51,350 nt of DNA from IMG/VR virus record IMGVR_UViG_2690315831_000003. One strand, 5' to 3'. The stretch's first letter is position 1. The number at the start of each line of letters is the position of its first letter. Of this stretch, positions 4,363 through 24,609 are shown piece after piece. Origin of the DNA: a virus (Duplodnaviria > Heunggongvirae > Uroviricota > Caudoviricetes). A program made the position numbers and the translations under genes. Below the pieces are notes generated by a model, which saw only the letters and a list, made by a program, of their open reading frames with translations, was not told the DNA's origin and did no database searches.

Positions 4363-4539
4363 TATCGCGTCCTCAACAATGAATTTTGTGATGTGGTGCC
4401 TGGTGCCTCCAGGTGACGTTAACCAGTTAACAATTAACGCCGGATTGTTAGTTGATGTCTGTTACGCCAGTAAAAGACCGCTTGTTTTAACTGTTCCGCG
4501 TGCGCTTAGCCGCATTCACCGCATCACAAAATACACTTT

Positions 4540-11393: not shown

Positions 11394-11603
11394 AAACGGT
11401 TTGCGGGGAAAGAAGAGTTAAGTAGAATTGCTGCGGGTGCTTGAGGCTGTCTGCCTCGGGCATGCCGCCGTAAGGCAGACAGAGAAAAGCCCCAGTTAAC
11501 ATTACGCGTCTTGCAGGACGCTTAACATTAATCTGAGGCCCAATCTATGCTTCACAAACGTAGGTTAGCCTCTTACGTGCCGAAAGGCAAGGAGAAGCAG
11601 GCT

Positions 11604-11759
11604 ATGAAGCAGCAAAAGGCGATGTTAATCGCCCTGATCGTCATCTGTATTACCGTTGTTGTGACGGCACTGGTAACGAGGAAAGACCTCTGCGAGGTAC
11701 GAATCCGAACCGGCCAGACGGAGGTCGCTGTCTTCGTAGACTACGAATCTGAGAAGTAA
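11604..11759 (+). CDS. hokD: Hok/Gef-family type I toxin (HokD/RelF-like)
   Basis: 51-aa MKQQKAMLIALIVICITVVVTALVTRKDLCEVRIRTGQTEVAVFVDYESEK nearly matches recalled HokD/RelF; structured 5' leader with 10-bp hairpin and 3' fold-back hairpin GCGAGGGAgaaaTCCCTCGC. Confidence 0.85.
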   Translation: MKQQKAMLIALIVICITVVVTALVTRKDLCEVRIRTGQTEVAVFVDYESEK

Positions 11760-13263: not shown

Positions 13264-13626
13264 ATGCTCATAGATTTGGTTTTACCTTACCCGCCGACGG
13301 TGAACACTTACTGGCGACGCCGTGGCAGCACATATTTTGTATCAAAAGCCGGGGAGCGTTATCGCCGGGCAGTGGTGCTTATTGTTCGCCAGCAGCGACT
13401 GAAATTAAGCCTGTCCGGACGGCTGGCAATAAAAATTATTGCAGAGCCGCCGGATAAGCGCCGCCGTGACCTGGACAATATTCTGAAAGCACCGCTGGAT
13501 GCGCTGACGCACGCGGGGTTGTTAATGGACGATGAGCAGTTTGATGAAATCAATATTGTACGTGGCAAGCCAGTATCTGGTGGACGGCTGGAGATAAGAA
13601 TTACAGAGGTGGGTGTGCATGAATAA
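13264..13626 (+). CDS. rusA: Holliday-junction resolvase RusA
   Basis: 120 aa; motifs PDKRRRDLDNILKAPLDAL and GGRLEIRITEVG match recalled RusA. Confidence 0.85.
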   Translation: MLIDLVLPYPPTVNTYWRRRGSTYFVSKAGERYRRAVVLIVRQQRLKLSLSGRLAIKIIAEPPDKRRRDLDNILKAPLDALTHAGLLMDDEQFDEINIVRGKPVSGGRLEIRITEVGVHE

Positions 13627-14284
13627 CCAGTATTTACAGTTTGTTCGTGAGCAACTCATGATTGCCACTGCGGATCTTAGTGGGTCGACAAAAGGCCAGC
13701 TGGAAGTCTGGCAGGAAAATGCCCTGTTCGATACAGGGCGTTACAGACGCAAAAAAATTCGTTACCGCGATGAGGTAACCGGAAAAATGATCACGCGGGA
13801 TAATCCCCCGATCCCGGGTAAACAATCACTGGCGAAAGGCTCATCAATTGCCCTGGTCAGTCCGGTTGAGTTTTCGACATCATCATGGCGACGCGCCGTT
13901 CTGTCTCTTGAAGAACATCATAAAGCCTGGCTGCTGTGGTGTTACAGCGGTAGCATTTGCTGGGAGCATCAGATCGCGATAACGCAGTGGGCGTGGACTG
14001 AATTTAATGCTCAATCCGGTACCAGAAAAATTGCAGGAAAAACTCTGGTGCGCCTGAAGACGTTGATCTGGTTGGCGGCGCAGGCGGTAAAAGCTGAGCT
14101 TTTTGGTGGGGAAGGTTACGAATACCAGGAACTGGCGTTACTGGTGGGAGTAACAACCAAAAACTGGTCCAAGACATTTACTGGTCACTGGGTTGCAATG
14201 AAACACATTTTTCATCGGCTGGATAGTGAAGCTTTATTGTTGGTGGAGGGAACACGTTCAAAACAAAAGGCGGCATTTTCATAG
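13619..14284 (+). CDS. Late-gene antiterminator, Q-like
   Basis: Follows rusA and directly precedes a strong promoter plus intrinsic terminator pair (pR'/tR' architecture); Qin-like gene order. Confidence 0.6.
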   Translation: MNNQYLQFVREQLMIATADLSGSTKGQLEVWQENALFDTGRYRRKKIRYRDEVTGKMITRDNPPIPGKQSLAKGSSIALVSPVEFSTSSWRRAVLSLEEHHKAWLLWCYSGSICWEHQIAITQWAWTEFNAQSGTRKIAGKTLVRLKTLIWLAAQAVKAELFGGEGYEYQELALLVGVTTKNWSKTFTGHWVAMKHIFHRLDSEALLLVEGTRSKQKAAFS

Positions 14285-15424: not shown

Positions 15425-15622
15425 ATGCTGAAACAGCAGGATATGACAGAAACCGCCAGAGCAGTTTTTAATGAATTAAGTGCCACCGAACCGGCGACAG
15501 TCGGGGAGATTGCACAGAATACGTACCTTTCACGCGAACGCTGCCAGCTAATACTGACCCAGCTTGTTATGGCGGGTCTGGCAGACTATCAGTTCGGTTG
15601 TTACAGACGCCTTCAGTCCTGA
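15425..15622 (+). CDS. Small winged-helix-like DNA-binding protein
   Basis: ATG 15425 with purine-rich RBS; ATVGEIAQNTYLSRERCQLILTQL resembles a recognition helix. Confidence 0.45.
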   Translation: MLKQQDMTETARAVFNELSATEPATVGEIAQNTYLSRERCQLILTQLVMAGLADYQFGCYRRLQS

Positions 15623-15632
15623 AGGCTTTTTT
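15604..15632 (+). terminator. Intrinsic terminator
   Basis: GCCTTCA-gtcc-TGAAGGC then TTTTTTATTT, overlapping the stop of the upstream small gene. Confidence 0.55.
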
Positions 15633-15772
15633 ATTTGTGGTAAATGGGCGGCTGGTGGGGGTTAGGGGCACTCACCAGCCATCTGCTCATGCGTCCGGAT
15701 CACAAGCAAACCTCAGGCCCACTGCTTTGCGCAAAAGCAGAATGAGCCTATCAGAGACAGGCTTAATGATCC

Positions 15773-16831
15773 ATGTTTAATACTGTAAAAATATCCAGTT
15801 GTGAGTTAATCAACGCTGACTGCCTGGAATTTATCCGGTCGTTACCCGAAAATTCTGTTGACCTGATAGTCACGGACCCGCCGTACTTTAAAGTGAAGCC
15901 TGAGGGCTGGGATAACCAGTGGAAGGGCGACGATGACTACCTGAAGTGGCTGGACCTGTGTCTGGCGCAGTTCTGGCGGGTGCTGAAACCTGCCGGAAGT
16001 CTTTACCTGTTCTGTGGCCATCGCCTGGCATCTGACATTGAAATCATGATGCGTGAACGCTTCAGTGTGCTGAACCATATTATCTGGGCAAAGCCGTCCG
16101 GACGCTGGAACGGGTGCAACAAGGAAAGCCTGCGGGCGTATTTCCCCGCCACAGAGCGCATTCTGTTCGCGGAACATTATCAGGGGCCGTATCGCCCGAA
16201 AGATGCCGGGTATGAGGCGAAGGGCAGGGCACTGAAACAGCATGTGATGGCCCCGCTGATTTCTTACTTTCGTGATGCGCGTGCTGCCCTGGGGATAACG
16301 GCAAAACAGATAGTGGATGCCACAGGAAAGAAAAACATGGTGTCGCACTGGTTCAGTGCCAGTCAGTGGCAGCTACCGAACGAAAGCGATTATCTGAAAT
16401 TACAGGCGCTGTTTGCCCGGGTGGCAGAAGAGAAGCATCAGCGGGGGGAACTGGAGAAGCCCCACCACCAGCTGCTGGAGACGTATACTTCACTGAACCG
16501 GCAGTATGCGGAACTGCAGAGTGAATATAAGCATCTGCGGCGGTATTTTGGCGTGACGGCGCAGGTGCCGTACACGGATGTGTGGACGCATAAACCGGTG
16601 CAGTACTATCCCGGGAAACATCCGTGCGAAAAACCGGCAGAAATGCTGCAGCAGATAATCAGCGCGAGCAGTCGTCCGGGTGACCTGGTTGCAGATTTTT
16701 TCATGGGGTCGGGTTCGACAGTCAAAGCCGCGATGGCGCTGGGGCGGCGTGCTACAGGCGTTGAGCTGGAGACTGAACGTTTTGAGCAGACGGTCAGGGA
16801 AGTTCAGGATTTAGTCAGTCAGAACGGATGA
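15773..16831 (+). CDS. Orphan DNA methyltransferase (N6-adenine or N4-cytosine, beta-class)
   Basis: DPPY motif near N-terminus (VTDPPYF) and FxGxG motif near C-terminus (FFMGSGST); no adjacent restriction endonuclease gene. Confidence 0.85.
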   Translation: MFNTVKISSCELINADCLEFIRSLPENSVDLIVTDPPYFKVKPEGWDNQWKGDDDYLKWLDLCLAQFWRVLKPAGSLYLFCGHRLASDIEIMMRERFSVLNHIIWAKPSGRWNGCNKESLRAYFPATERILFAEHYQGPYRPKDAGYEAKGRALKQHVMAPLISYFRDARAALGITAKQIVDATGKKNMVSHWFSASQWQLPNESDYLKLQALFARVAEEKHQRGELEKPHHQLLETYTSLNRQYAELQSEYKHLRRYFGVTAQVPYTDVWTHKPVQYYPGKHPCEKPAEMLQQIISASSRPGDLVADFFMGSGSTVKAAMALGRRATGVELETERFEQTVREVQDLVSQNG

Positions 16832-16871
16832 TATTGCAGGATTAGTTACGTACCGTTATTATCCTGCGACC

Positions 16872-16947
16872 GGCCCTTTAGCTCAGTGGTGAGAGCGAGC
16901 GACTCATAATCGCCAGGTCGCTGGTTCAAATCCAGCAAGGGCCACCA
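16872..16947 (+). tRNA. tRNA with CAU anticodon (Ile2/ileX-like or Met)
   Basis: Cloverleaf folded by hand: acceptor GGCCCTT/AAGGGCC, D-arm GCTC-AGTGGTGA-GAGC, anticodon loop CTCATAA, T-loop TTCAAAT, 3' CCA. Confidence 0.85.
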
Positions 16948-16956
16948 TATCACATA

Positions 16957-17033
16957 CCGCCATTAGCTCATCGGGATAGAGCGCCAGCCTTCGAAGCTGG
17001 CTGCGCGGGGTTCGAGTCCTCGATGGCGGTCCA
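16957..17033 (+). tRNA. tRNA-Arg (UCG anticodon)
   Basis: Acceptor CCGCCAT/ATGGCGG, anticodon stem CCAGC/GCTGG with loop CTTCGAA, T-loop TTCGAGT, 3' CCA; unusual C1-G72. Confidence 0.75.
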
Positions 17034-17311
17034 TTATCTGCATTATGCGTTGTTGGTTCTGATGAGTGAATCATTGTCTTTTGAGCAACAGGCTATCATA
17101 TAAGATAGCCTCAGACTTCCTTGTTTATTCTCGCCGGATGCTTCGTAGATATTTGCAGGCATCTGTATGCAGGGGTATTATTGCGGCATATATCATCCGG
17201 AAAAATAAAAACTACATGCTGATCCGGAGATGATAGTTACAAGTCCTCCCGGATCCCGCATATTTACTATATTTTATAGATAATTGTTCTTGTTAATATG
17301 GAGATGGATAA

Positions 17312-17740
17312 ATGTATTGCCGTGCTGTACCGGTTCTTGTTTTGATATTAGCCAGTCTGACAACTGGCTGCACAAAAGATGTATCGACAAATAATTATGA
17401 TGCTTCTCTGTATCACTCAGATAAATTAATAAAGTCGCAAAATTTGAGCTCATCGGAACGTACCCCTGATGCCAGTGAAGAAATCCGGCAGTATGCCATT
17501 CAGGTCAGGAAAGCCATAGAAGAACAGTTAAAGGATGCGAGTAAGTATTCAGGAAAAGAGTGTTCACTGAGAATGTATATGGCCCCGAATGGTCTTCTGC
17601 TACAGGTTAAAAGAGAAAGCGGTGATCCCGATTTATGTCGTGAAGCGATGAATGCAGTAAAGAATGCTGATATACCATCACCACCGTCTTCAGGAGTATA
17701 TAAAGCATTTAGAAATGGCGTGCTGGATTTTAAACTCTGA
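17312..17740 (+). CDS. Lipoprotein with TolA C-terminal (domain III)-like domain
   Basis: Signal peptide plus lipobox LTTGC; C-terminal SKYSGKECSLRMYMAPNGLLLQVKRESGDPDLCREAMNAVKNADIPSPPSSGVYKAFRNGVLDFKL parallels recalled E. coli TolA III; AT-rich context. Confidence 0.7.
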   Translation: MYCRAVPVLVLILASLTTGCTKDVSTNNYDASLYHSDKLIKSQNLSSSERTPDASEEIRQYAIQVRKAIEEQLKDASKYSGKECSLRMYMAPNGLLLQVKRESGDPDLCREAMNAVKNADIPSPPSSGVYKAFRNGVLDFKL

Positions 17741-17877
17741 CAGGGGGAGAAGATTTTCTCCTGTCCTGATGATTTTGGGGCGCTGGAAAGATATTGTGCT
17801 GTGAAGTGTTAAATCCCTCACAATTCAGTAAGTTGACAGTTGCCTGTCAGACTGAGCATTTGTTAAAAAAATTTCGC

Positions 17878-18053
17878 ATGGTGAATCCCCCTGTGCGGAG
17901 GGGCGACTGGTGAACGGTATGATCTCTTTGATGATCGTAAGCGAGAATACGCGGGTTTGGTGTCACCGGGCTGAACTCACCGGGAGGCACCCGGCACCAT
18001 GCTCATGGTGATACAGAAATGCGGCTTCAGCCCCTCTCCGGAGGGGCTTTCTT
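17878..18053 (+). ncRNA. Putative sRNA, repeat unit A
   Basis: Promoter TTGCCT (17840-17845) / TAAAAA (17864-17869); terminator GCCCCTCTCCGGAGGGGC + T-run at 18030-18052; ORFs across the unit not conserved. Confidence 0.4.
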
Positions 18054-18060
18054 ATGGACA

Positions 18061-18128
18061 AAAAAAGCCCGCGCTGGGAGACGCGGGCGGCAAGGAATAA
18101 ACAATAAAACGTGAAGTAATACTTCAAC
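18061..18128 (-). ncRNA. Putative minus-strand sRNA, copy 1
   Basis: Minus strand: -35 TTGCGC, 17 nt, -10 TATTAT, then a ~70-nt transcript with hairpin GAAGTAtTACTTC and terminator GCCCGCG...CGCGGGC + T7. Confidence 0.4.
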
Positions 18129-18210
18129 TGGCGAATAATACCCTACAGTAATCACTCTGCGCAATAGCGTGGCCTTTTTCGAATTGCGGGCTGTAGTCTC
18201 CCTTCTGCCG

Positions 18211-18372
18211 GGTGTCCTGGTTGCAGATTTCTTCATGTGGTAGGGTTCGGCAGTTAAAGCAGCGATGGCGCTGGGGCGTCGTGCAACTGGCGTTGAGCTG
18301 GATACCGGGCGTTTTGAACAGACTGCGCAGGAAATCAGGGATGTATTTAGCGGGAGCGGTTTGCAGAAGTAA
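18211..18372 (+). pseudogene. Duplicated 3' fragment of the methyltransferase gene
   Basis: About 160 bp homologous to 16679-16831 (MTase C-terminus), with an in-frame stop and no start. Confidence 0.6.
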
Positions 18373-18435
18373 TCTCCCAAAATGCCATTTTTGGAATATA
18401 CTGGTATTAAGTCTTTTTGCTAAGGTTAATTCAAA

Positions 18436-19161
18436 ATGGATGTTGCCTGCTCTGTGGTCCTGATTCGCTATCCGATAGATATTTTTCTTGAAAAAGAAAA
18501 AGTTTCACTCGATGCCGGAAGTGTTATGCTTGTTGCCAGAAATATAAGAGGGCTTTTCTGTGCTTATGCCGACAGAGTGAAAATGGCAGATATAAGTAAC
18601 AGCGTCGTCAATCAGTATCTGGAAAGGGAGTGTGAACTGACGGAGTATACACCGACAAAAATGCCTCTTTATTTGATGTCTGATATTTACAATACGGAAC
18701 TGGCGGAGGCTTTAATAACCCGGCATAGTGAATCCAGTGATACTTTGAAGGATTTCTCTGTTATAACCGCATTTTCATGTATCTCCTTATTTGCAACAGA
18801 CAGACGTCTGCCATTATTTTTGTCCGGTGCTGTAAATAATATCAGCTGTAAAGTAAGGGCTATAATTCAGACCGACATATCGGCAGGCTGGATGCTTGGT
18901 GTGATTGCATTACAATTGCATATGAGCGAAAGCTTGTTGAAGCGAAAACTTAAGGATGAAGGTTATAGCTTTAGTCGGTTGTTGCTGGAGGAGCGAATGC
19001 GTGTTGCTGTTAATCTTGTATGTTTCCAGCGAGAGTGTGGACAAGCGATAGCGGAAAAATGTGGTTACTCAAGTAAGTCCTACTTCATTTCTGTATTTCA
19101 CCAGTATTATGGTGCACCACCTGAGAGCTATGCATATTTGCAGAAAGCAGACGTTATCTGA
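18436..19161 (+). CDS. AraC/XylS-family transcriptional regulator (cargo)
   Basis: 241 aa; C-terminal dual-HTH AraC signature region; AT-rich locus. Confidence 0.7.
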   Translation: MDVACSVVLIRYPIDIFLEKEKVSLDAGSVMLVARNIRGLFCAYADRVKMADISNSVVNQYLERECELTEYTPTKMPLYLMSDIYNTELAEALITRHSESSDTLKDFSVITAFSCISLFATDRRLPLFLSGAVNNISCKVRAIIQTDISAGWMLGVIALQLHMSESLLKRKLKDEGYSFSRLLLEERMRVAVNLVCFQRECGQAIAEKCGYSSKSYFISVFHQYYGAPPESYAYLQKADVI

Positions 19162-19250
19162 TGTTTTTTCATCAGGCATATATTGATTGACTGTATTAGA
19201 TATAGTCTGAATGTGTTCAGCATAAAAAGTTATAATCATTTGGTGTTTGC

Positions 19251-19529
19251 GTGAATATTGATGAGAAAATCAGATGTAGCCAACTGTTACAGCGTATTGA
19301 AGCCGTCAATGTGGAACGAACAAAGGTCTTCAGTCGTCTGACAGTTTTATTTTGTACCCCTGATCGACGTTCAGGTCAGGAGATGGTTCTTCTGGATGTA
19401 GATGCACTTCGGAACGTCTGTGAGGAGTTCACCGCGGCTAATTCGGAGTTACTGAGTCTTGTTCAGGAGTACAACAGAATTGCAGGTAGTAACGGTTTTG
19501 ATGAAATCAAAATTATATCCCGTGGATAA
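19251..19529 (+). CDS. Hypothetical protein downstream of the AraC-like regulator
   Basis: 92-aa ORF with GTG start and weak RBS. Confidence 0.35.
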   Translation: MNIDEKIRCSQLLQRIEAVNVERTKVFSRLTVLFCTPDRRSGQEMVLLDVDALRNVCEEFTAANSELLSLVQEYNRIAGSNGFDEIKIISRG

Positions 19530-19852
19530 AACATATCCTGTATATTTATGTTGTTACATACAGGCGCTTTTAGTATCTGCCGCACGGCAGTTGTACTTCA
19601 GAATAAGATGCTTTTGTGACTGGTGGTGTTGTATCTGGGGTTAGCCAGTAGGCAGGTTCAGAGAGTCCGGTGGTAATTATGTGTATGCAGTGGTTGTTGC
19701 TGTACCGTGGGCAAGTTCTGGAACTGGCTTCGTCCATTGTAGATGATTGTTAGCTGGATATCAGTTACCTCATGGAAATGTTAAATGACTCACAATTCGG
19801 TTGATGGGCTATTGTCTGATCGATGGAAGTCTTGTAAAAACGAGCCAGCATA

Positions 19853-20012
19853 GTGAATCCCCCTGTGCGGAGGGGCGTCTGACATGGTCTCCATAGCGAT
19901 GGTCACAATACGCAGATTCAGTAGTCAGGCTGAATCTACCGGGAGGCACCCGGCACTATGCTGCTTATGGTGTATACATAGCGATCGGCCCCTCTCCGGA
20001 GGGGCTTTTTTT
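19853..20012 (+). ncRNA. Putative sRNA, repeat unit B
   Basis: Same conserved 5' and 3' blocks, divergent middle; terminator 19988-20012. Confidence 0.4.
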
Positions 20013-20111
20013 GTGCGGGAAAAGGCTGTGTTGTTAAGTGTTAAATTCCTCACAGTTCAGATGGTTGATGCTTGCCTGTCTGAGGGGGAGTTGTTAAAAA
20101 AGTTCTGCATG

Positions 20112-20282
20112 GTGAATCCCCCTGTGCGGAGGGGCGACTGGTGTGATTTGCATCTTTTCTGTTGTAGGCAATGCAAACGCGGGTTCAGGGACACCAGACT
20201 GGACTCACCGGGAGGCACCCGGCACCATGTTCATGATGATACAGATACGCAGTGTCAGCCCCTCTCCTGAGGGGCTTTTTTA
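20112..20282 (+). ncRNA. Putative sRNA, repeat unit C
   Basis: Near-identical to unit A over the first ~35 nt and the 3' hairpins; terminator 20258-20282. Confidence 0.4.
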
Positions 20283-20381
20283 TGCAGGAAAAACGCTGTG
20301 TTGTGAAATGTTAAATTCCTCACAGTTCAGATGGTTGATGCTTGCCTGTCTTACGGGGAGTTGTTAAAAAAGTTCTGCATG

Positions 20382-20544
20382 GTGAATCCCCCTGAGCGGA
20401 GGGGCATATCAGCGCAGGTGTTTCTACTCTATCCTTTCTGTGCGGGTTCAGGTGCTGATACTGAACTCACCGGGAGGCACCCGGCACCATGCAGTATACA
20501 GAGATTAGGCATACATCCAGGCTCCTCATCGCAGGAGCCTTTTT
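20382..20544 (+). ncRNA. Putative sRNA, repeat unit D
   Basis: Conserved 5' box and internal hairpin; different terminator GGCTCCTcatcgcAGGAGCC + T5. Confidence 0.35.
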
Positions 20545-20550
20545 ACATGT

Positions 20551-20628
20551 AAAAAAAAACCGCTCCTGGGAAGAGCGGTTGGCAAGGAAGCAAGGAATAA
20601 ATAACAAAACGTGAAGTAATTTATTCAG
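20551..20628 (-). ncRNA. Putative minus-strand sRNA, copy 2
   Basis: Same promoter TTGCGC-17-TATTAT and conserved body UUACUUCACGUUUU..UUAUUCCUUGC; terminator AACCGCTC...GAGCGGTT + T9. Confidence 0.4.
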
Positions 20629-20777
20629 CACCCTAATAATACCTTAGAGTAATCACCTTGCGCAACTGTAAGGGCGTATTTCTTTTTTGCGGGCTGTTTT
20701 TCTGTGTGACTTTTGTGTTTCCGGAGGTCAGCCCGTGCCTTCTCTGACTCAGAACATTATCCCGGCCGGGAGGATTC

Positions 20778-22742
20778 ATGGCATTTAAACACTACGATGT
20801 GGTCAGGGCGGCATCGCCGTCAGACCTTGCTGAACGACTGACACAAAAACTGAAGGAGGGCTGGCAGCCATTTGGCAGTCCGGTGGCCATCACGCCTTAT
20901 ACCCTGATGCAGGCCATTGCGGCGGAAGGTGATGTCACCACACCAGTGGCGGTGACCGGTAATGAGGGTAAGGCGGTGGCTGTCAGTGCCACCAGCGACC
21001 CGGAGTATTACTTTGTTGTGGTTCTGGCAGGGCAGTCAAATGGCATGTCGTATGGTGAAGGTCTTCCGCTGCCGGAGACATATGACCGTCCGGACCCGCG
21101 CATTAAGCAGCTGGCGCGCCGCAGTACGGTGACACCGGGCGGTGCAGCATGCAAATATAACGACATCATTCCGGCGGACCATTGTCTGCATGATGTGCAG
21201 GACATGAGCCGCCTTAACCATCCGAAAGCGGACCTGTCAAAGGGGCAGTACGGTACCGTGGGGCAGGGGCTGCATATCGCCAAAAAACTGCTGCCGTTTA
21301 TACCGGCGAATGCGGGTATTCTGCTGGTTCCGTGCTGTCGTGGTGGTTCAGCGTTCACCACCGGAGCTGATGGCACATACAGTGACGCTGGCGGTGCCTC
21401 GGAGAATTCAGCGCGCTGGGGTGTGGACAAGCCGCTGTATAAGGACCTTATCGGTCGAACAAAAGCAGCACTGAAGAAGAACCCGAAAAATGTGCTGTTT
21501 ACCGTGGTGTGGATGCAGGGGGAATTTGATTTTGACGGCACGCCCGGAAATCACGCAGCACAGTTTGGTGCGCTGGTTGATAAATTCCGTGCAGACCTGA
21601 CGGATATGGCAGGTCAGTGCGTTGGTGGCTCTGCTGGCGGTGTTCCCTGGATATGCGGGGACACGACGTATTTCTGGAAGCAGAAGAACGAATCCACGTA
21701 CCAGACGGTGTACGGCAGCTATAAAAACAAAACGGAAAAGAATATCCATTTCGTACCGTTCATGACGGATGAGAACGGGGTGAATGTGCCGACGAACAAA
21801 CCGGAAGAAGACCCGGACATTCCGGGTATCGGGTATTACGGTTCGAAATGGCGTGACAGCTCAGCCACCTGGACGTCACAGGACAGGGCGAGCCATTTCA
21901 GCACCTGGGCACGCCGGGGGATTATTTCCGACCGTCTGGCAACGGCGATTCTGGTGCACGCCGGGAGAACCGCTGAATTCATTACCGGAAAACAGCCTGA
22001 TATGGTGAAGCCCACCGTACCTTCCGGTGAAGGTCCGGAGAGAGAGGCGGAAGCCCCGGTCAGTAACCGAACCCTGATGAGTCTGCTGGCATCCGGCGAA
22101 GACCTGGCATCACAGGGCTGGCGCTATTATCACAAACCGGCGGGCGGAGACAGTGTTAACAAAAACATTGCTGAAGCGGTGGTCAGTGATGCGGGGGCTA
22201 CGGGAGGTAAGGCCCTGCAACTGAACAAACCGGAAAACCACATCTGGTTTCTGGAGCATGATGCAGCCGGACAGGGGGCGGAGTTACTGAAGAAGGGCGG
22301 ACGTGTGAGCGTACGGTTTAAGTTGCCGGGTTCACTGGTGCCGAATCAGTTTGCCCTGGGCATTTACTGGCAGTTGTCGTCCCTGCCGGAGGGGGTGACG
22401 CTGTCAGGAGAAGGTAACGATATGCTGATGTCTTTCTTCCTGCAGACGGATACGACGAACCTGAACGCGATGCATCACAGGAAGCCGAATGCGAAGCTGG
22501 ATACATTCGGGGTCTTTGATAACGGATGGCACACGCTGGCTTTTGAGTTTGCCGGAAACAACAGCATTCAGGTGACACCAGTACTGGATGAGAAACGGGG
22601 AGCGGCGTTCACACTGGTGAAGTCACCGGCATCGGGGGCGGCGGACAAACTGCAACTGACCGATATATCAAAATCGGCGACGTATACGCTGCTGATTGAC
22701 AGCATTGCGGTGGAAGTGAACAGCACAGACACTGCGGCATGA
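20778..22742 (+). CDS. nanS: Prophage 9-O-acetyl-sialate esterase NanS-p-like (SGNH hydrolase)
   Basis: 654 aa; GQSN motif in VVLAGQSNGMSYGEG; same location relative to the stx site as the NanS-p gene of Stx phages. Confidence 0.7.
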   Translation: MAFKHYDVVRAASPSDLAERLTQKLKEGWQPFGSPVAITPYTLMQAIAAEGDVTTPVAVTGNEGKAVAVSATSDPEYYFVVVLAGQSNGMSYGEGLPLPETYDRPDPRIKQLARRSTVTPGGAACKYNDIIPADHCLHDVQDMSRLNHPKADLSKGQYGTVGQGLHIAKKLLPFIPANAGILLVPCCRGGSAFTTGADGTYSDAGGASENSARWGVDKPLYKDLIGRTKAALKKNPKNVLFTVVWMQGEFDFDGTPGNHAAQFGALVDKFRADLTDMAGQCVGGSAGGVPWICGDTTYFWKQKNESTYQTVYGSYKNKTEKNIHFVPFMTDENGVNVPTNKPEEDPDIPGIGYYGSKWRDSSATWTSQDRASHFSTWARRGIISDRLATAILVHAGRTAEFITGKQPDMVKPTVPSGEGPEREAEAPVSNRTLMSLLASGEDLASQGWRYYHKPAGGDSVNKNIAEAVVSDAGATGGKALQLNKPENHIWFLEHDAAGQGAELLKKGGRVSVRFKLPGSLVPNQFALGIYWQLSSLPEGVTLSGEGNDMLMSFFLQTDTTNLNAMHHRKPNAKLDTFGVFDNGWHTLAFEFAGNNSIQVTPVLDEKRGAAFTLVKSPASGAADKLQLTDISKSATYTLLIDSIAVEVNSTDTAA

Positions 22743-22876
22743 TAAAAAAAGCCGCCAGTTACCGGAATGGACTGGCGGTGGTAATACCCATGGAGAAATA
22801 TAAAGGAACGATACTTTCGTGCTCTGTTTTTTTAAATGAAAACAGTTCTTATTGTCAACAATAACGGTAAGAAATT

Positions 22877-23056
22877 ATGACTTTTATTCATCAGGTGATG
22901 CTGTACTTCTGTACGGCAGTCTGTGTGCTGTATCTCCTTTCGGGTGGATACCGGGCCATGCGTGACTTCTGGCGCAGACAGATTGACAAAAGGGCCGCTG
23001 AGAAAATCAGCGCCAGTCAGTCAGCCGGAAGCAAACCCGAAGAGCCGCTCATTTAG
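22877..23056 (+). CDS. Possible small membrane protein (59 aa)
   Basis: ATG 22877; hydrophobic N-terminus; below the ORF-track cutoff. Confidence 0.3.
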   Translation: MTFIHQVMLYFCTAVCVLYLLSGGYRAMRDFWRRQIDKRAAEKISASQSAGSKPEEPLI

Positions 23057-23096
23057 CGGCAACTTTCTTAATCACACCTTTCGACGAGAAAATCCC

Positions 23097-23342
23097 ATGT
23101 CAGAAATTACATCCCTGGTCACTGCTGAAGCAGTGAAGGACGTCCTGCGCTCTGAAGAAGTCCTGAGCGCACTGAAACAGAAACTTCGCCATAACCTGGA
23201 AGCGCGTCTTGATGCAGAAGTGGATGCCATTCTGGATGAACTGCTGGGCGCACCGGCAGCTCCGGAGCCGGAAGGCATCGCGGGAGAGGGGAGTGCTTCA
23301 GATAGCGGTGACCCCACACCTGACAGCGACATGATGATGTAA
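23097..23342 (+). CDS. Small acidic hypothetical protein
   Basis: ATG 23097 (MSEITSLV...); Asp/Glu-rich C-terminus. Confidence 0.4.
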
Positions 23343-23419
23343 GCATGCGTCAGGGACCATCGGTGTGTGCCGGTGGTCTTTTTTATTGTTGTGAGCTTCC
23401 GGATTGCGGGAGACGGGGT

Positions 23420-23635
23420 ATGTACCAGATGGAAAAAATCACAACAGGTGTGTCATACACCACGTCAGCGGTGGGAACGGGCTACTGGTTCCTGCAGTTG
23501 CTGGACAGGGTTTCCCCGTCTCAGTGGGCGGCAATAGGCGTGCTGGGGAGTCTGCTGTTTGGGCTGCTGACATATCTGACGAACCTGTATTTCAAGATTA
23601 AAGAAGACCGTCGTAAGGCGGCACGGGGAGAGTAG
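23420..23635 (+). CDS. S: Class II holin (phage 21 S-like pinholin), dual-start motif
   Basis: 71 aa [23 protein letters not shown]... closely matches recalled S21; two Met codons three residues apart. Confidence 0.85.
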
Positions 23636-23638
23636 GTG

Positions 23639-23968
23639 ATGAACCATGAAGAAATGAATCAGCGCTTCAGTCGTCTGGAAAATGAAATTGCTGAACTGAA
23701 TAAAAAACTGTCGGCGCTGATGCCTTCTGAAGATGCAAACAAACGCCGCGATGAGCAGTTTGCGGCGTTTTACGATGATTGCATCAAAATTGCTCGCAGG
23801 ATCTTTGCGAATATTTTGCAGGAAAAGTTTTTACCGACCGCATTGTCAGAAAAGTACTCCATTACGGTTAGAAGTGCCGGAGAGGAAGGCAATAAACGTT
23901 ATTTTATTGCGTCTGCACCGGATAAAGACCAGGAATGGGGGGGGGTAATCGGCCATCTTTTATTGTGA
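23639..23968 (+). CDS. Hypothetical protein, N-terminal part of a gene split at a G9 tract
   Basis: ORF runs into the G9 homopolymer (23937-23945) and stops 23 nt later; the next ORF starts inside the tract in the +1 frame. Confidence 0.45.
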   Translation: MNHEEMNQRFSRLENEIAELNKKLSALMPSEDANKRRDEQFAAFYDDCIKIARRIFANILQEKFLPTALSEKYSITVRSAGEEGNKRYFIASAPDKDQEWGGVIGHLLL

Positions 23969-24309
23969 CAAGCGATGACTGGAATATCACGATCAGTGAA
24001 GATGGAAAAGTAACACCAGCATCGCACCAGCACAGTGAGGCGCTCATTGAATTTGCCATTGATTACATGAAGAACAATAAAAAGCAGGGGCTGATGCAGC
24101 GCATTGGTCGCTGCATGGGATATCTGCAGCTGGCGGCAGAGATTGAAGCACTTGCCTGTGGTGCTGACAAGGATGTAGTTGTGCGGGAGGCTCTTCTTCG
24201 TGAGTTTGACAACCCGCCCTTTAAAAAAGTGCCGGCTTACTGGTTTCATCCTGGACTGACTTATCTGAAAGGGCGGTTTGGGGAGAGGTTATCTGAACTT
24301 AAGCGATAG
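23935..24309 (+). CDS. Hypothetical protein, C-terminal part of the same split gene
   Basis: Frame becomes continuous with 23639..23968 if the G-run has 10 rather than 9 G. Confidence 0.45.
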   Translation: MGGGNRPSFIVTSDDWNITISEDGKVTPASHQHSEALIEFAIDYMKNNKKQGLMQRIGRCMGYLQLAAEIEALACGADKDVVVREALLREFDNPPFKKVPAYWFHPGLTYLKGRFGERLSELKR

Positions 24310-24609
24310 TTTATTGAAGAGCCGTTTTTTTTGCAGACAGGCAAAGTTTTTATCCCATGAACAACCCGGGTGACTGAGTTCGTCATTAAACCATTTGTTA
24401 ATGTTGTGCTTCAGATGCTGAAGCATCAATGGTGTTAATGTGGTGATAATGATATCCAGAGTTTCTGTTGAAAGCATGCCGTAAGGCTCTGAGAGAATGG
24501 CCTGAGTGGCCTCGCTGTTATCCGGGATAAGCGCTTTTAATTCTGATTTAACATTTTCGTTCATTATCTGCAAAAACTCTTTGCGTAAATTGTTGTCATT
24601 ATTATTCAT
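24289..24609 (-). CDS. Hypothetical protein, convergent with the split gene
   Basis: 106-aa ORF in roughly 35% GC DNA, where long ORFs are unlikely by chance. Confidence 0.4.
   Translation of the reverse strand: MNNNDNNLRKEFLQIMNENVKSELKALIPDNSEATQAILSEPYGMLSTETLDIIITTLTPLMLQHLKHNINKWFNDELSHPGCSWDKNFACLQKKRLFNKLSLKFR

Follow-up and report, generated by a model that had tools for sequence, protein, structure and literature searches.

Four units of the STnc100 small-RNA family in the late region of a lambdoid prophage

The virus record IMGVR_UViG_2690315831_000003 (IMG/VR; Caudoviricetes) contains four homologous plus-strand units, here called A to D, each running from a promoter-like sequence to a terminator-like hairpin. 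The locus raises the question of what these units are and what they do. The whole stretch of DNA that was analysed, 51,350 nucleotides (nt) long, is referred to as the window. Comparison with covariance models identifies all four units, on sequence and predicted structure, as members of a described prophage small-RNA (sRNA) family, STnc100 / EcOnc27 / PasD. When Rfam 15 was scanned against the window, STnc100 (RF02076; gathering score 47 bits) was matched over model positions 1-206 of 206 by unit A (172.4 bits, E = 3e-39; 17847-18059), unit D (165.6 bits; 20349-20550), unit C (140.8 bits; 20078-20287) and unit B (119.5 bits; 19819-20014). No other Rfam family matched units A-D within 15500-24500, even at E <= 1. 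A model of the RNA core built in this analysis (R1) scores 90, 89.8, 90.7 and 98.6 bits for A, B, C and D. The first-pass annotation, made from the letters of the window, had placed four units here, had read them as a promoter-terminator sRNA family conserved at the RNA level and had proposed an Rfam covariance search, of which the four full-length matches are the outcome. Its placement is borne out by the box, composite-pattern, promoter, terminator and alignment checks, and its reading by helices that covary and by close relatives that are Hfq-bound and Northern-validated. It could put no named sRNA to the units; the family was recognised, but the name STnc100 was missed, as were the long-range and pseudoknot pairings. 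The units and their predicted RNAs are as follows.

17808..18054, plus strand: unit A; 5' box 17808-17828, -35 hexamer TTGCCT 17840-17845, -10 hexamer TAAAAA 17864-17869
17876-18054, plus strand: RNA of unit A; predicted 5' end ~17876, core 17876-18002, tail 18003-18028, terminator 18029-18054
19780..20012, plus strand: unit B; -35 hexamer TTGTCT 19812-19817, -10 hexamer 19835-19840
19848-20012, plus strand: RNA of unit B; predicted 5' end ~19848, core 19848-19961, tail 19962-19986, terminator 19987-20012
20040..20282, plus strand: unit C; -35 hexamer 20072-20077, -10 hexamer 20095-20100
20107-20282, plus strand: RNA of unit C; predicted 5' end ~20107, core 20107-20230, tail 20231-20256, terminator 20257-20282
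20310..20545, plus strand: unit D; -35 hexamer 20342-20347, -10 hexamer 20365-20370
20377-20545, plus strand: RNA of unit D; predicted 5' end ~20377, core 20377-20492, tail 20493-20518, terminator 20519-20545

Earlier work has described, named and curated this family, and reference genomes of enterohaemorrhagic Escherichia coli (EHEC) carry annotated copies. STnc100 was first reported in Salmonella Typhimurium and is a multi-copy prophage sRNA. In E. coli O157:H7 EDL933, 11 copies are annotated; every one is transcribed, and a Northern blot has confirmed one of them (PMC5331693). The copy directly 3' of stx2B, in Sakai Sp5 and EDL933, overlaps the Hfq-bound sRNA EcOnc27/sRNA103 (PMC12711010; PMC4104026; PMC7873438). 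In enteropathogenic E. coli (EPEC), PasD1 and PasD2 are RNAs of 172-173 nt found by Hfq RIL-seq (ligation and sequencing of interacting RNAs) and by Northern blot (PMC8550237), and a common ancestry of PasD and STnc100 was concluded by Zhu, Shabalina and Storz (bioRxiv 2026). Our alignments and model scores place EcOnc27/sRNA103 of the O157 Stx2 phages within the STnc100 family and PasD1/PasD2 in a sister group.

Aligned with one another, the four units show 77% mean column identity, with a near-invariant 5' block and 3' hairpin on either side of a variable middle. Exactly four copies of the 5' box GTTAAATNNCTCACARTTCRG are present in the window (at 17808, 19780, 20040 and 20310) and four of the composite GTGAATCCCCCTGNGCGGAGGGGC-N55-85-ACCGGGAGGCACCCGGCAC, with none of either in shuffles. 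Wider comparison used at least 240 loci retrieved by an exact 19-mer of the 3' hairpin (P5, below), one half taken from viral contigs, the other from a set with a single genome for each species; family counts refer to the loci listed. Their hosts belong to many genera of the Enterobacterales, among them Salmonella, Klebsiella, Enterobacter, Citrobacter, Kosakonia, Raoultella, Pantoea, Erwinia and Rahnella, together with a few G+C-rich genomes that are apparent chance matches. Of 196 unique upstream regions, 22 have the box, at the constant position -58. It contains CUCACA (17817-17822, 19789-19794, 20049-20054 and 20319-20324), the motif found in EPEC PasD1/PasD2 targets and complementary to UGUGAG; for a 6-mer this may be coincidence, though the position of the box is fixed.

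All four units carry TTGCCT or TTGTCT, a spacer of 17-18 nt and TAAAAA preceded by TG, which together form a predicted sigma-70 promoter (TG-n-TAAAAA), then 8-9 nt to GCATGG or GCATAG. The 5' ends of A-D were taken from alignment to the start of EPEC PasD2 (NC_011601:741157; 172 nt), which falls on the G of GCATGG; the -35 and -10 hexamers align as well. In Salmonella LT2, chromatin immunoprecipitation with exonuclease (ChIP-exo) gave an RpoD signal at STnc100 promoters (PMC10794520). The first ~29 positions of the RF02076 model (17847-17875 and equivalents) would thus be promoter DNA, including the -10 region, upstream of the PasD-mapped 5' end. An 11-nt complementarity to stxB has been reported for 'positions 5-15 of STnc_100' (PMC12370729); because the model starts before the mapped 5' end, that stretch would lie in untranscribed promoter DNA. 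At the other end, G+C-rich, intrinsic-terminator-like hairpins with T-runs close the units at 18029-18048, 19987-20006, 20257-20276 and 20519-20540, the T-run of unit A being weak (TTTCTTA). Between 17200 and 20900 there are 14 terminator-like sites against 3.8 expected. The earlier description of a 5' box, a regularly spaced promoter-like pair, a conserved 3' hairpin and an intrinsic terminator in every unit is therefore correct in all its parts.

The predicted RNA consists of a core of ~115-125 nt, a variable tail of ~25 nt and the Rho-independent terminator. The first 8 nt, GCAUGGUG, form a long-range helix (P1) with CACCAUGC ~110 nt downstream, past the 3' hairpin. Within P1 lies AAU and then hairpin P2 (CCCCC-UGUGCG-GAGGG), followed by a variable insert and the central helix P4 (for example GGGUUCAG/CUGAACUC). 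One nucleotide after P4 comes the hairpin P5 (CCGGG-AGGCA-CCCGG), which directly abuts the P1 3' strand and in the proposed fold would stack on P1. Unit B shows compensatory changes in P1 (GCAUAGUG/CACUAUGC), in P4 (AGAUUCAG/CUGAAUCU) and in the pseudoknot described below (CUGAC/GUCAG). P1, P2, P4, P5 and the terminator all appear in the minimum free energy (MFE) folds that ViennaRNA gives for B, C and D (z between -2.2 and -3.2; C: -2.2). The MFE fold of unit A is an alternative structure, because P2 and the unit A terminator share sequence.

These helices covary across the family. P1 is represented by 73 distinct sequences among 194 unique cores, and 180 of the 194 retain at least five contiguous pairs. 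In an unfitted MAFFT alignment of 68 diverse cores, pairing is 90.8% in P1 (double changes at 7/8 pairs), 90.3% in P4 (8/8) and 87.6% in P2; family-wide, it is 88-100% per helix. The covariation score is 0.406, as against 0.170 in shuffles (0/500) and ~0.09-0.13 for slid partners. P5 is invariant among these loci because they were retrieved by its exact 19-mer; divergent members change P5, once with a compensatory pair. The closing, 5' hairpin, central and 3' hairpin helices of the STnc100 consensus are thus supported in these sequences. The first-pass annotation had the conserved start region folding as a hairpin, which is right only for the local CCCCC...GGGG element, since GCAUGGUG pairs at long range instead; the middle that it called variable does diverge, yet holds a covarying helix and the pseudoknot and so is structured. 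A switch between P1 and a hairpin of the P1 3' strand with the CAUGGUG repeat in the tails of A-C was considered and rejected, as self and cross values were equal (3.79) and 1592 of 3000 permutations reached the observed value. Since the core is a multi-helix element closed by a stem with a stacked 3' hairpin, a tRNA-like fold was also considered; ARAGORN gives only the two genuine tRNAs of the prophage, and no tRNA-clan model matched the units at E <= 1.

The core holds a further pairing. A stretch of 5-9 nt that starts 2-4 nt after P2 is complementary to the P4 loop: CUGGUGA/UCACCGG in unit A, CUGAC/GUCAG in B, CUGGUGU/ACACCAG in C and, in D, UAUCAGCGC with GUGCUGAUA, where the 9-nt P4 loop pairs over its whole length. 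Among 99 diverse cores there are 84 distinct helices of this kind. The longest contiguous helix averages 6.25 bp within sequences and 4.57 bp between them (0/5000 permutations); in a model-based alignment of 134 unique cores the values are 6.04 and 4.34 bp (0/5000). PasD2 has a 10-bp version. Pairing at fixed register is just 56-57% in both alignments, because the helix slides by 1-2 nt between sequences, and a helix search per sequence with a cross-sequence control was therefore used. On this comparative evidence the core contains a covarying pseudoknot. The structure line of RF02076 shows none, and the published consensus for PasD and STnc100 comes from RNAalifold, a program unable to predict pseudoknots (Zhu, Shabalina and Storz, bioRxiv 2026).

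The units hold no conserved reading frame. Open reading frames (ORFs) through them differ in frame and stop position, the spacing of the two invariant blocks is uniform modulo 3 (39/37/30 in 106 cores), and the would-be start codon is ATG or GTG in 66 of the 106 diverse cores but missing in 40 (38%); in unit B it is ATA. A test at codon level, with no conserved frame and with covarying helices, thus agrees with the earlier view that conservation acts on nucleotides and structure.

The units can be compared with five known systems. What they have in common with STnc100 itself is the helices, a location in prophages and occurrence in multiple copies. EcOnc27/sRNA103 of the Sakai prophage Sp5 lies 75-280 nt after stx2B, matches STnc100 with 207.7 bits and faces the convergent sRNA AsxR. 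Units A-D are placed likewise with respect to tRNAs, moron, esterase and lysis genes, and A and D also face a convergent short sRNA gene each. They differ from Sp5 in that the window has no stx gene, a lipoprotein with a TolA C-terminal domain and a YdeO/GadX-like regulator standing at the moron positions, and in that there are four units in place of one, with central segments just 51-66% identical to EcOnc27. The closest counterparts of EcOnc27 are the promoter region of unit A (84%) and the tail of unit D (87%, terminator included). PasD shares the promoter layout, 5' end, P1, P2, P4, pseudoknot, length, terminator and a locus upstream of the esterase. Unlike A-D it falls below the Rfam cut-off for STnc100, and with R1 it scores just 32 bits. 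It aligns with A-D only in the promoter, the 5' block and scattered positions of the core, and none of the four tails contains its seed UGUGAG, which in PasD lies immediately before the terminator.

The convergent sRNA dyads described by Tree et al. 2014 at moron sites of eight Sakai prophages, with AsxR and AgvB as minus-strand partners, have the architecture seen at A and D, but the minus-strand partners here are of the EcOnc08/21/42-like type, as in an EPEC PP6 sRNA. The lambdoid late-leader RNAs (lambda 6S RNA; StxS from PR'-tR') are likewise short terminated transcripts in the interval between Q and the lysis genes. They are made constitutively and read through when Q acts. Klebsiella and Pantoea modules resemble them in lying between a Q-like gene and a holin; the units in the window differ from them in lying 3.5-6 kb downstream of Q, in having predicted promoters of their own and in showing no sequence or Rfam relationship to them.

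Of 5426 complete E. coli genomes, 2774 carry unit-like sequence, with as many as 11 occurrences in one genome. Coverage of the B-C-D array reaches 80% or more in 89 of the 5426; the array was found in 0 of 50,697 phage records, the best of which has a two-unit tandem after stx1c. That record, phiSTEC1589-Stx1c (PQ600364; locus L245, 5002-5435), lists both STnc100 units behind stx1cB as hypothetical proteins. In RefSeq NZ_AP027217, 99.4-99.9% identical to the window, all four units are unannotated. Among the retrieved loci, arrays of 2-5 cores make up 20 of 201 groups and are of two kinds. The first consists of complete promoter-to-terminator units every 250-270 nt, as in the window. In the second, found in Pantoea-type prophages (loci L197, 6356-7019, minus strand; L206, 2063-3645, plus strand; L167; L212), 3-5 bare cores succeed one another at intervals of 120-135 nt, and no more than one terminator is present, at the array end. 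In prophages of E. coli, Klebsiella, Superficieibacter, Enterobacter, Atlantibacter and Pantoea, the modules lie on the late-gene strand between Q and the lysis cassette. Of nine sampled loci, six have a holin or endolysin as the next ORF downstream, and a Q-like gene is directly upstream in two scanned cases (L143, L206). At L206 the 1.9 kb from the Q-like gene to the holin contain no ORF of 60 aa or more and, read by eye, five modules and five terminator-like hairpins, one module having P2 and P5 replaced. PasD copies are dispersed and not in tandem (Zhu, Shabalina and Storz, bioRxiv 2026), so the tandem arrays of the STnc100 branch are a detail that we did not find described. Relative to the literature examined, the covarying pseudoknot and the recurrence of tandem arrays across Enterobacterales prophages appear to be new.

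The window is a lambdoid prophage, and the units lie in its late 'moron' interval, between Q and moron genes on one side and esterase and lysis genes on the other. The neighbouring features are listed below.

13613-14284: antiterminator Q, followed by a conserved ORF
15773-16831: intact N6 DNA methylase, followed by two tRNAs (ARAGORN)
17312-17740, plus strand: predicted lipoprotein, 142 aa, with TolA C-terminal domain, at the position where Stx phages carry stxAB
18060..18164, minus strand: convergent small-RNA gene after unit A; -35 TTGCGC 18164-18159, -10 TATTAT 18140-18135, ACUUCACGUUUU 18117-18106, UUCCUUGC 18097-18090, terminator 18088-18067 plus T-run
18212..18372, plus strand: 3' remnant of an N6 DNA methyltransferase, its translation resembling the C-terminus of the intact methylase (15773-16831)
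18436-19161, plus strand: AraC-type regulator, 241 aa, with an end-to-end alignment to YdeO and one to GadX, each below the family cut-off
within the AraC-like block 18436-19529, plus strand: orf92 (92 aa), between the AraC-like regulator and unit B
20552..20665, minus strand: convergent small-RNA gene after unit D; same hexamers at 20665-20660 and 20641-20636, terminator 20580-20558
20778-22742: nanS-p-type esterase, after unit D and the second minus-strand gene; lysis genes come next
22744-22870, minus strand: sRNA-like gene right after the esterase stop, where EPEC has PasA/PasC; TTGACA-17-TTAAAA, ~80 nt
4389..4526, minus strand: fifth, divergent STnc100-like core in the prophage early region; 47.6 bits with R1, E ~4e-10

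The gene order around the units is common to Sp5, EPEC prophages and phiSTEC1589-Stx1c. In Sp5 (stx2AB) and phiSTEC1589-Stx1c (stx1c), stxB is followed directly by STnc100 units and these by the esterase and lysis genes, in agreement with the first-pass placement of the units at the stx site. In a Shigella flexneri locus (L198), a gene similar to that for the TolA-domain lipoprotein adjoins an STnc100 unit.

Two late-region cassettes appear to have been joined here, as judged from the methylase remnant (a partial pseudogene according to RefSeq in a near-identical genome) and from the block repeated at 18060-18164 and 20552-20665. It looks as if a second moron cassette with the AraC-like gene, orf92 and units B-D recombined in behind unit A. 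The segments of the units have different closest relatives: upstream regions are 95% identical between C and D, tails 85% between A and C, and central segments just 51-69% in every pair. The sequence comparison indicates that the array is a mosaic, which would have arisen by recombination between late regions of related prophages, with the conserved blocks evidently serving as crossover points.

The two minus-strand genes, detected as repeat families D5-D7, share TTGCGC, an 18-nt spacer and TATTAT, the conserved ACUUCACGUUUU...UUCCUUGC and a terminator stem that covaries between the two copies; in the copy after D the UUCCUUGC motif is duplicated (20597-20582). Units B and C have no convergent partner. 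The first gene holds the position of AsxR in Sp5 and is nearly identical to the EPEC RIL-seq sRNA 'E2348C_1409.E2348C_1408.IGR', which has been equated with EHEC EcOnc08/21/42 and has a predicted seed CUUGCG (PMC8550237). Identity of these partners with AsxR or AgvB was rejected, as neither RF02703 nor RF02702 matched within 15500-24500 at E <= 1, whereas AsxR of Sp5 scores 88 bits.

The fifth core scores below the Rfam gathering threshold and has a compensatorily changed P5 (CCUGG-AGGCA-CCAGG); its location in the early region means that the family is not confined to the late region. A PasA homologue between esterase and lysis genes was sought and rejected: the PasA probe sequence is absent, and the different sRNA-like gene found there has the terminator GCCGCCAGU...ACUGGCGGC plus U7 and a weak match to Esr41 (25 bits against a cut-off of 102). 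Elsewhere in the prophage, 11435-11609 (plus strand) is a full-length match to the sok antitoxin RNA (RF01794, 117.7 bits), which implies a type I toxin-antitoxin locus of the hok/sok type.

What the units do is a separate question. We consider it likely that they are four separately transcribed sRNA genes whose RNAs bind Hfq and pair in trans through their tails, and that they are read through under Q on induction. Each predicted promoter would give an RNA of ~166-179 nt starting at the G of GCAUGG; in the lysogen these RNAs would be made from their own promoters and ended at their own terminators. The stand-alone gene reading is favoured because of the promoter homology to PasD, the RpoD ChIP-exo signal in Salmonella and the transcription of all EDL933 copies. 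The A-D RNAs would bind Hfq as PasD and EcOnc27 do. The motif complementary to PasD targets is located in the tail next to the terminator (PMC8550237), and the corresponding tails of A-D may likewise pair with messenger RNAs; as tails and central segments differ, so would the target sets. In lytic growth, Q-modified RNA polymerase from the late promoter would read through the terminators to the esterase and lysis genes. Such read-through is established lambdoid biology. Expression, Hfq binding and a seed in the tail are taken from papers on homologues; for this strain, expression, targets and Q read-through are inferred.

Several observations weigh against this reading. The absence of UGUGAG from the four tails means that the PasD targets are not transferable to A-D, and for members of the STnc100 type just the effects of sRNA103 over-expression on fimZ and espA have been reported (PMC12711010; PMC7873438). 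The unit promoters escape a strict scan for the sigma-70 consensus, as TAAAAA has no T in the sixth place of the -10 hexamer. Some EDL933 copies carry appreciable ribosome footprints, with a ribosome coverage value (RCV) of up to 3.2 (PMC5331693). Simple seed pairing explains neither the strong conservation of a pseudoknotted core of ~120 nt nor the tandem Pantoea cores with no terminators between them.

These last two points lead to the alternative that survives best, which is compatible with separately transcribed sRNA genes: the conserved pseudoknotted core would be an autonomous RNA module, for protein binding or titration, as a processing signal or for stability, and the Hfq tail an accessory. 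Four covarying helices and the pseudoknot speak for it, as do P2 and junctions that are near-invariant across many Enterobacterales genera, GGAGG/GGA motifs in both conserved hairpins, the lack of a match to any other Rfam family and the Pantoea-type arrays, where the terminators number 0-1 and stand at the end. Against it, no partner protein or activity is known, the experimental PasD target motifs pair with the tail and not the core (PMC8550237), and the invariance of P5 follows from the 19-mer retrieval, divergent members having changed it. We hold this module reading to be possible but doubtful. The corresponding evolutionary proposal, that the ~120-nt core is a self-contained domain present in 1-5 copies in the Q-to-lysis interval of many Enterobacterales phages and that the Hfq tail of E. 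coli was added later, is equally tentative. If true, the family would be a class of structured non-coding RNA and not an ordinary seed-pairing sRNA.

Action mainly in cis seems unlikely, and somewhat more so than the module. Here the stack of terminators would silence lysis until Q acts and insulate moron expression, with the RNAs as by-products. The late-strand position between Q and the lysis cassette in prophages of six genera is what such a role would lead one to expect, as are the holin or endolysin first downstream in most sampled loci, the Q-like gene directly upstream at L143 and L206, the ORF-free interval of L206 with its five hairpins, and the excess of terminator-like sites in the window. 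A terminator, however, needs neither a conserved pseudoknotted domain of 120 nt nor its own promoter, and homologues accumulate as stable, abundant, Hfq-bound RNAs with many partners in trans.

That the units encode small proteins, such as a leaderless 11-codon AUG GUG AAU CCC ... in A and C, is very improbable and effectively refuted by the start-codon, stop and modulo-3 spacing analysis: ORFs do run through the units, two units are annotated as hypothetical proteins in PQ600364, and some EDL933 copies have ribosome footprints (PMC5331693), but the start codon is ATA in B and missing from over a third of diverse cores, stops are scattered, block spacing is uniform modulo 3 and substitutions are compensatory in RNA helices.

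Units A-D belong to one of the most abundant families of accessory sRNA in pathogenic E. coli, a member of which lies directly beside stx2. In a machine-learning study of 2025, sequence variants at the region of this stx2-adjacent member were among the predictors of haemolytic uraemic syndrome (PMC12711010). The two associated variants reported downstream of stx2B correspond to +90 and +103 after that gene in Sakai Sp5 (locus L244, ~4437-4451); one is within a few bases of the EcOnc27 -10 hexamer (4440-4445) and the other in the T-run before the predicted 5' end (4448-4450). Their positions suggest variants of the promoter, and not of the RNA itself. There is also an annotation gap: the units are blank in RefSeq, or phage records list them as hypothetical proteins. 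Structure probing and mutagenesis in this family can start from the pseudoknot, the modular core and the recurrent arrays.

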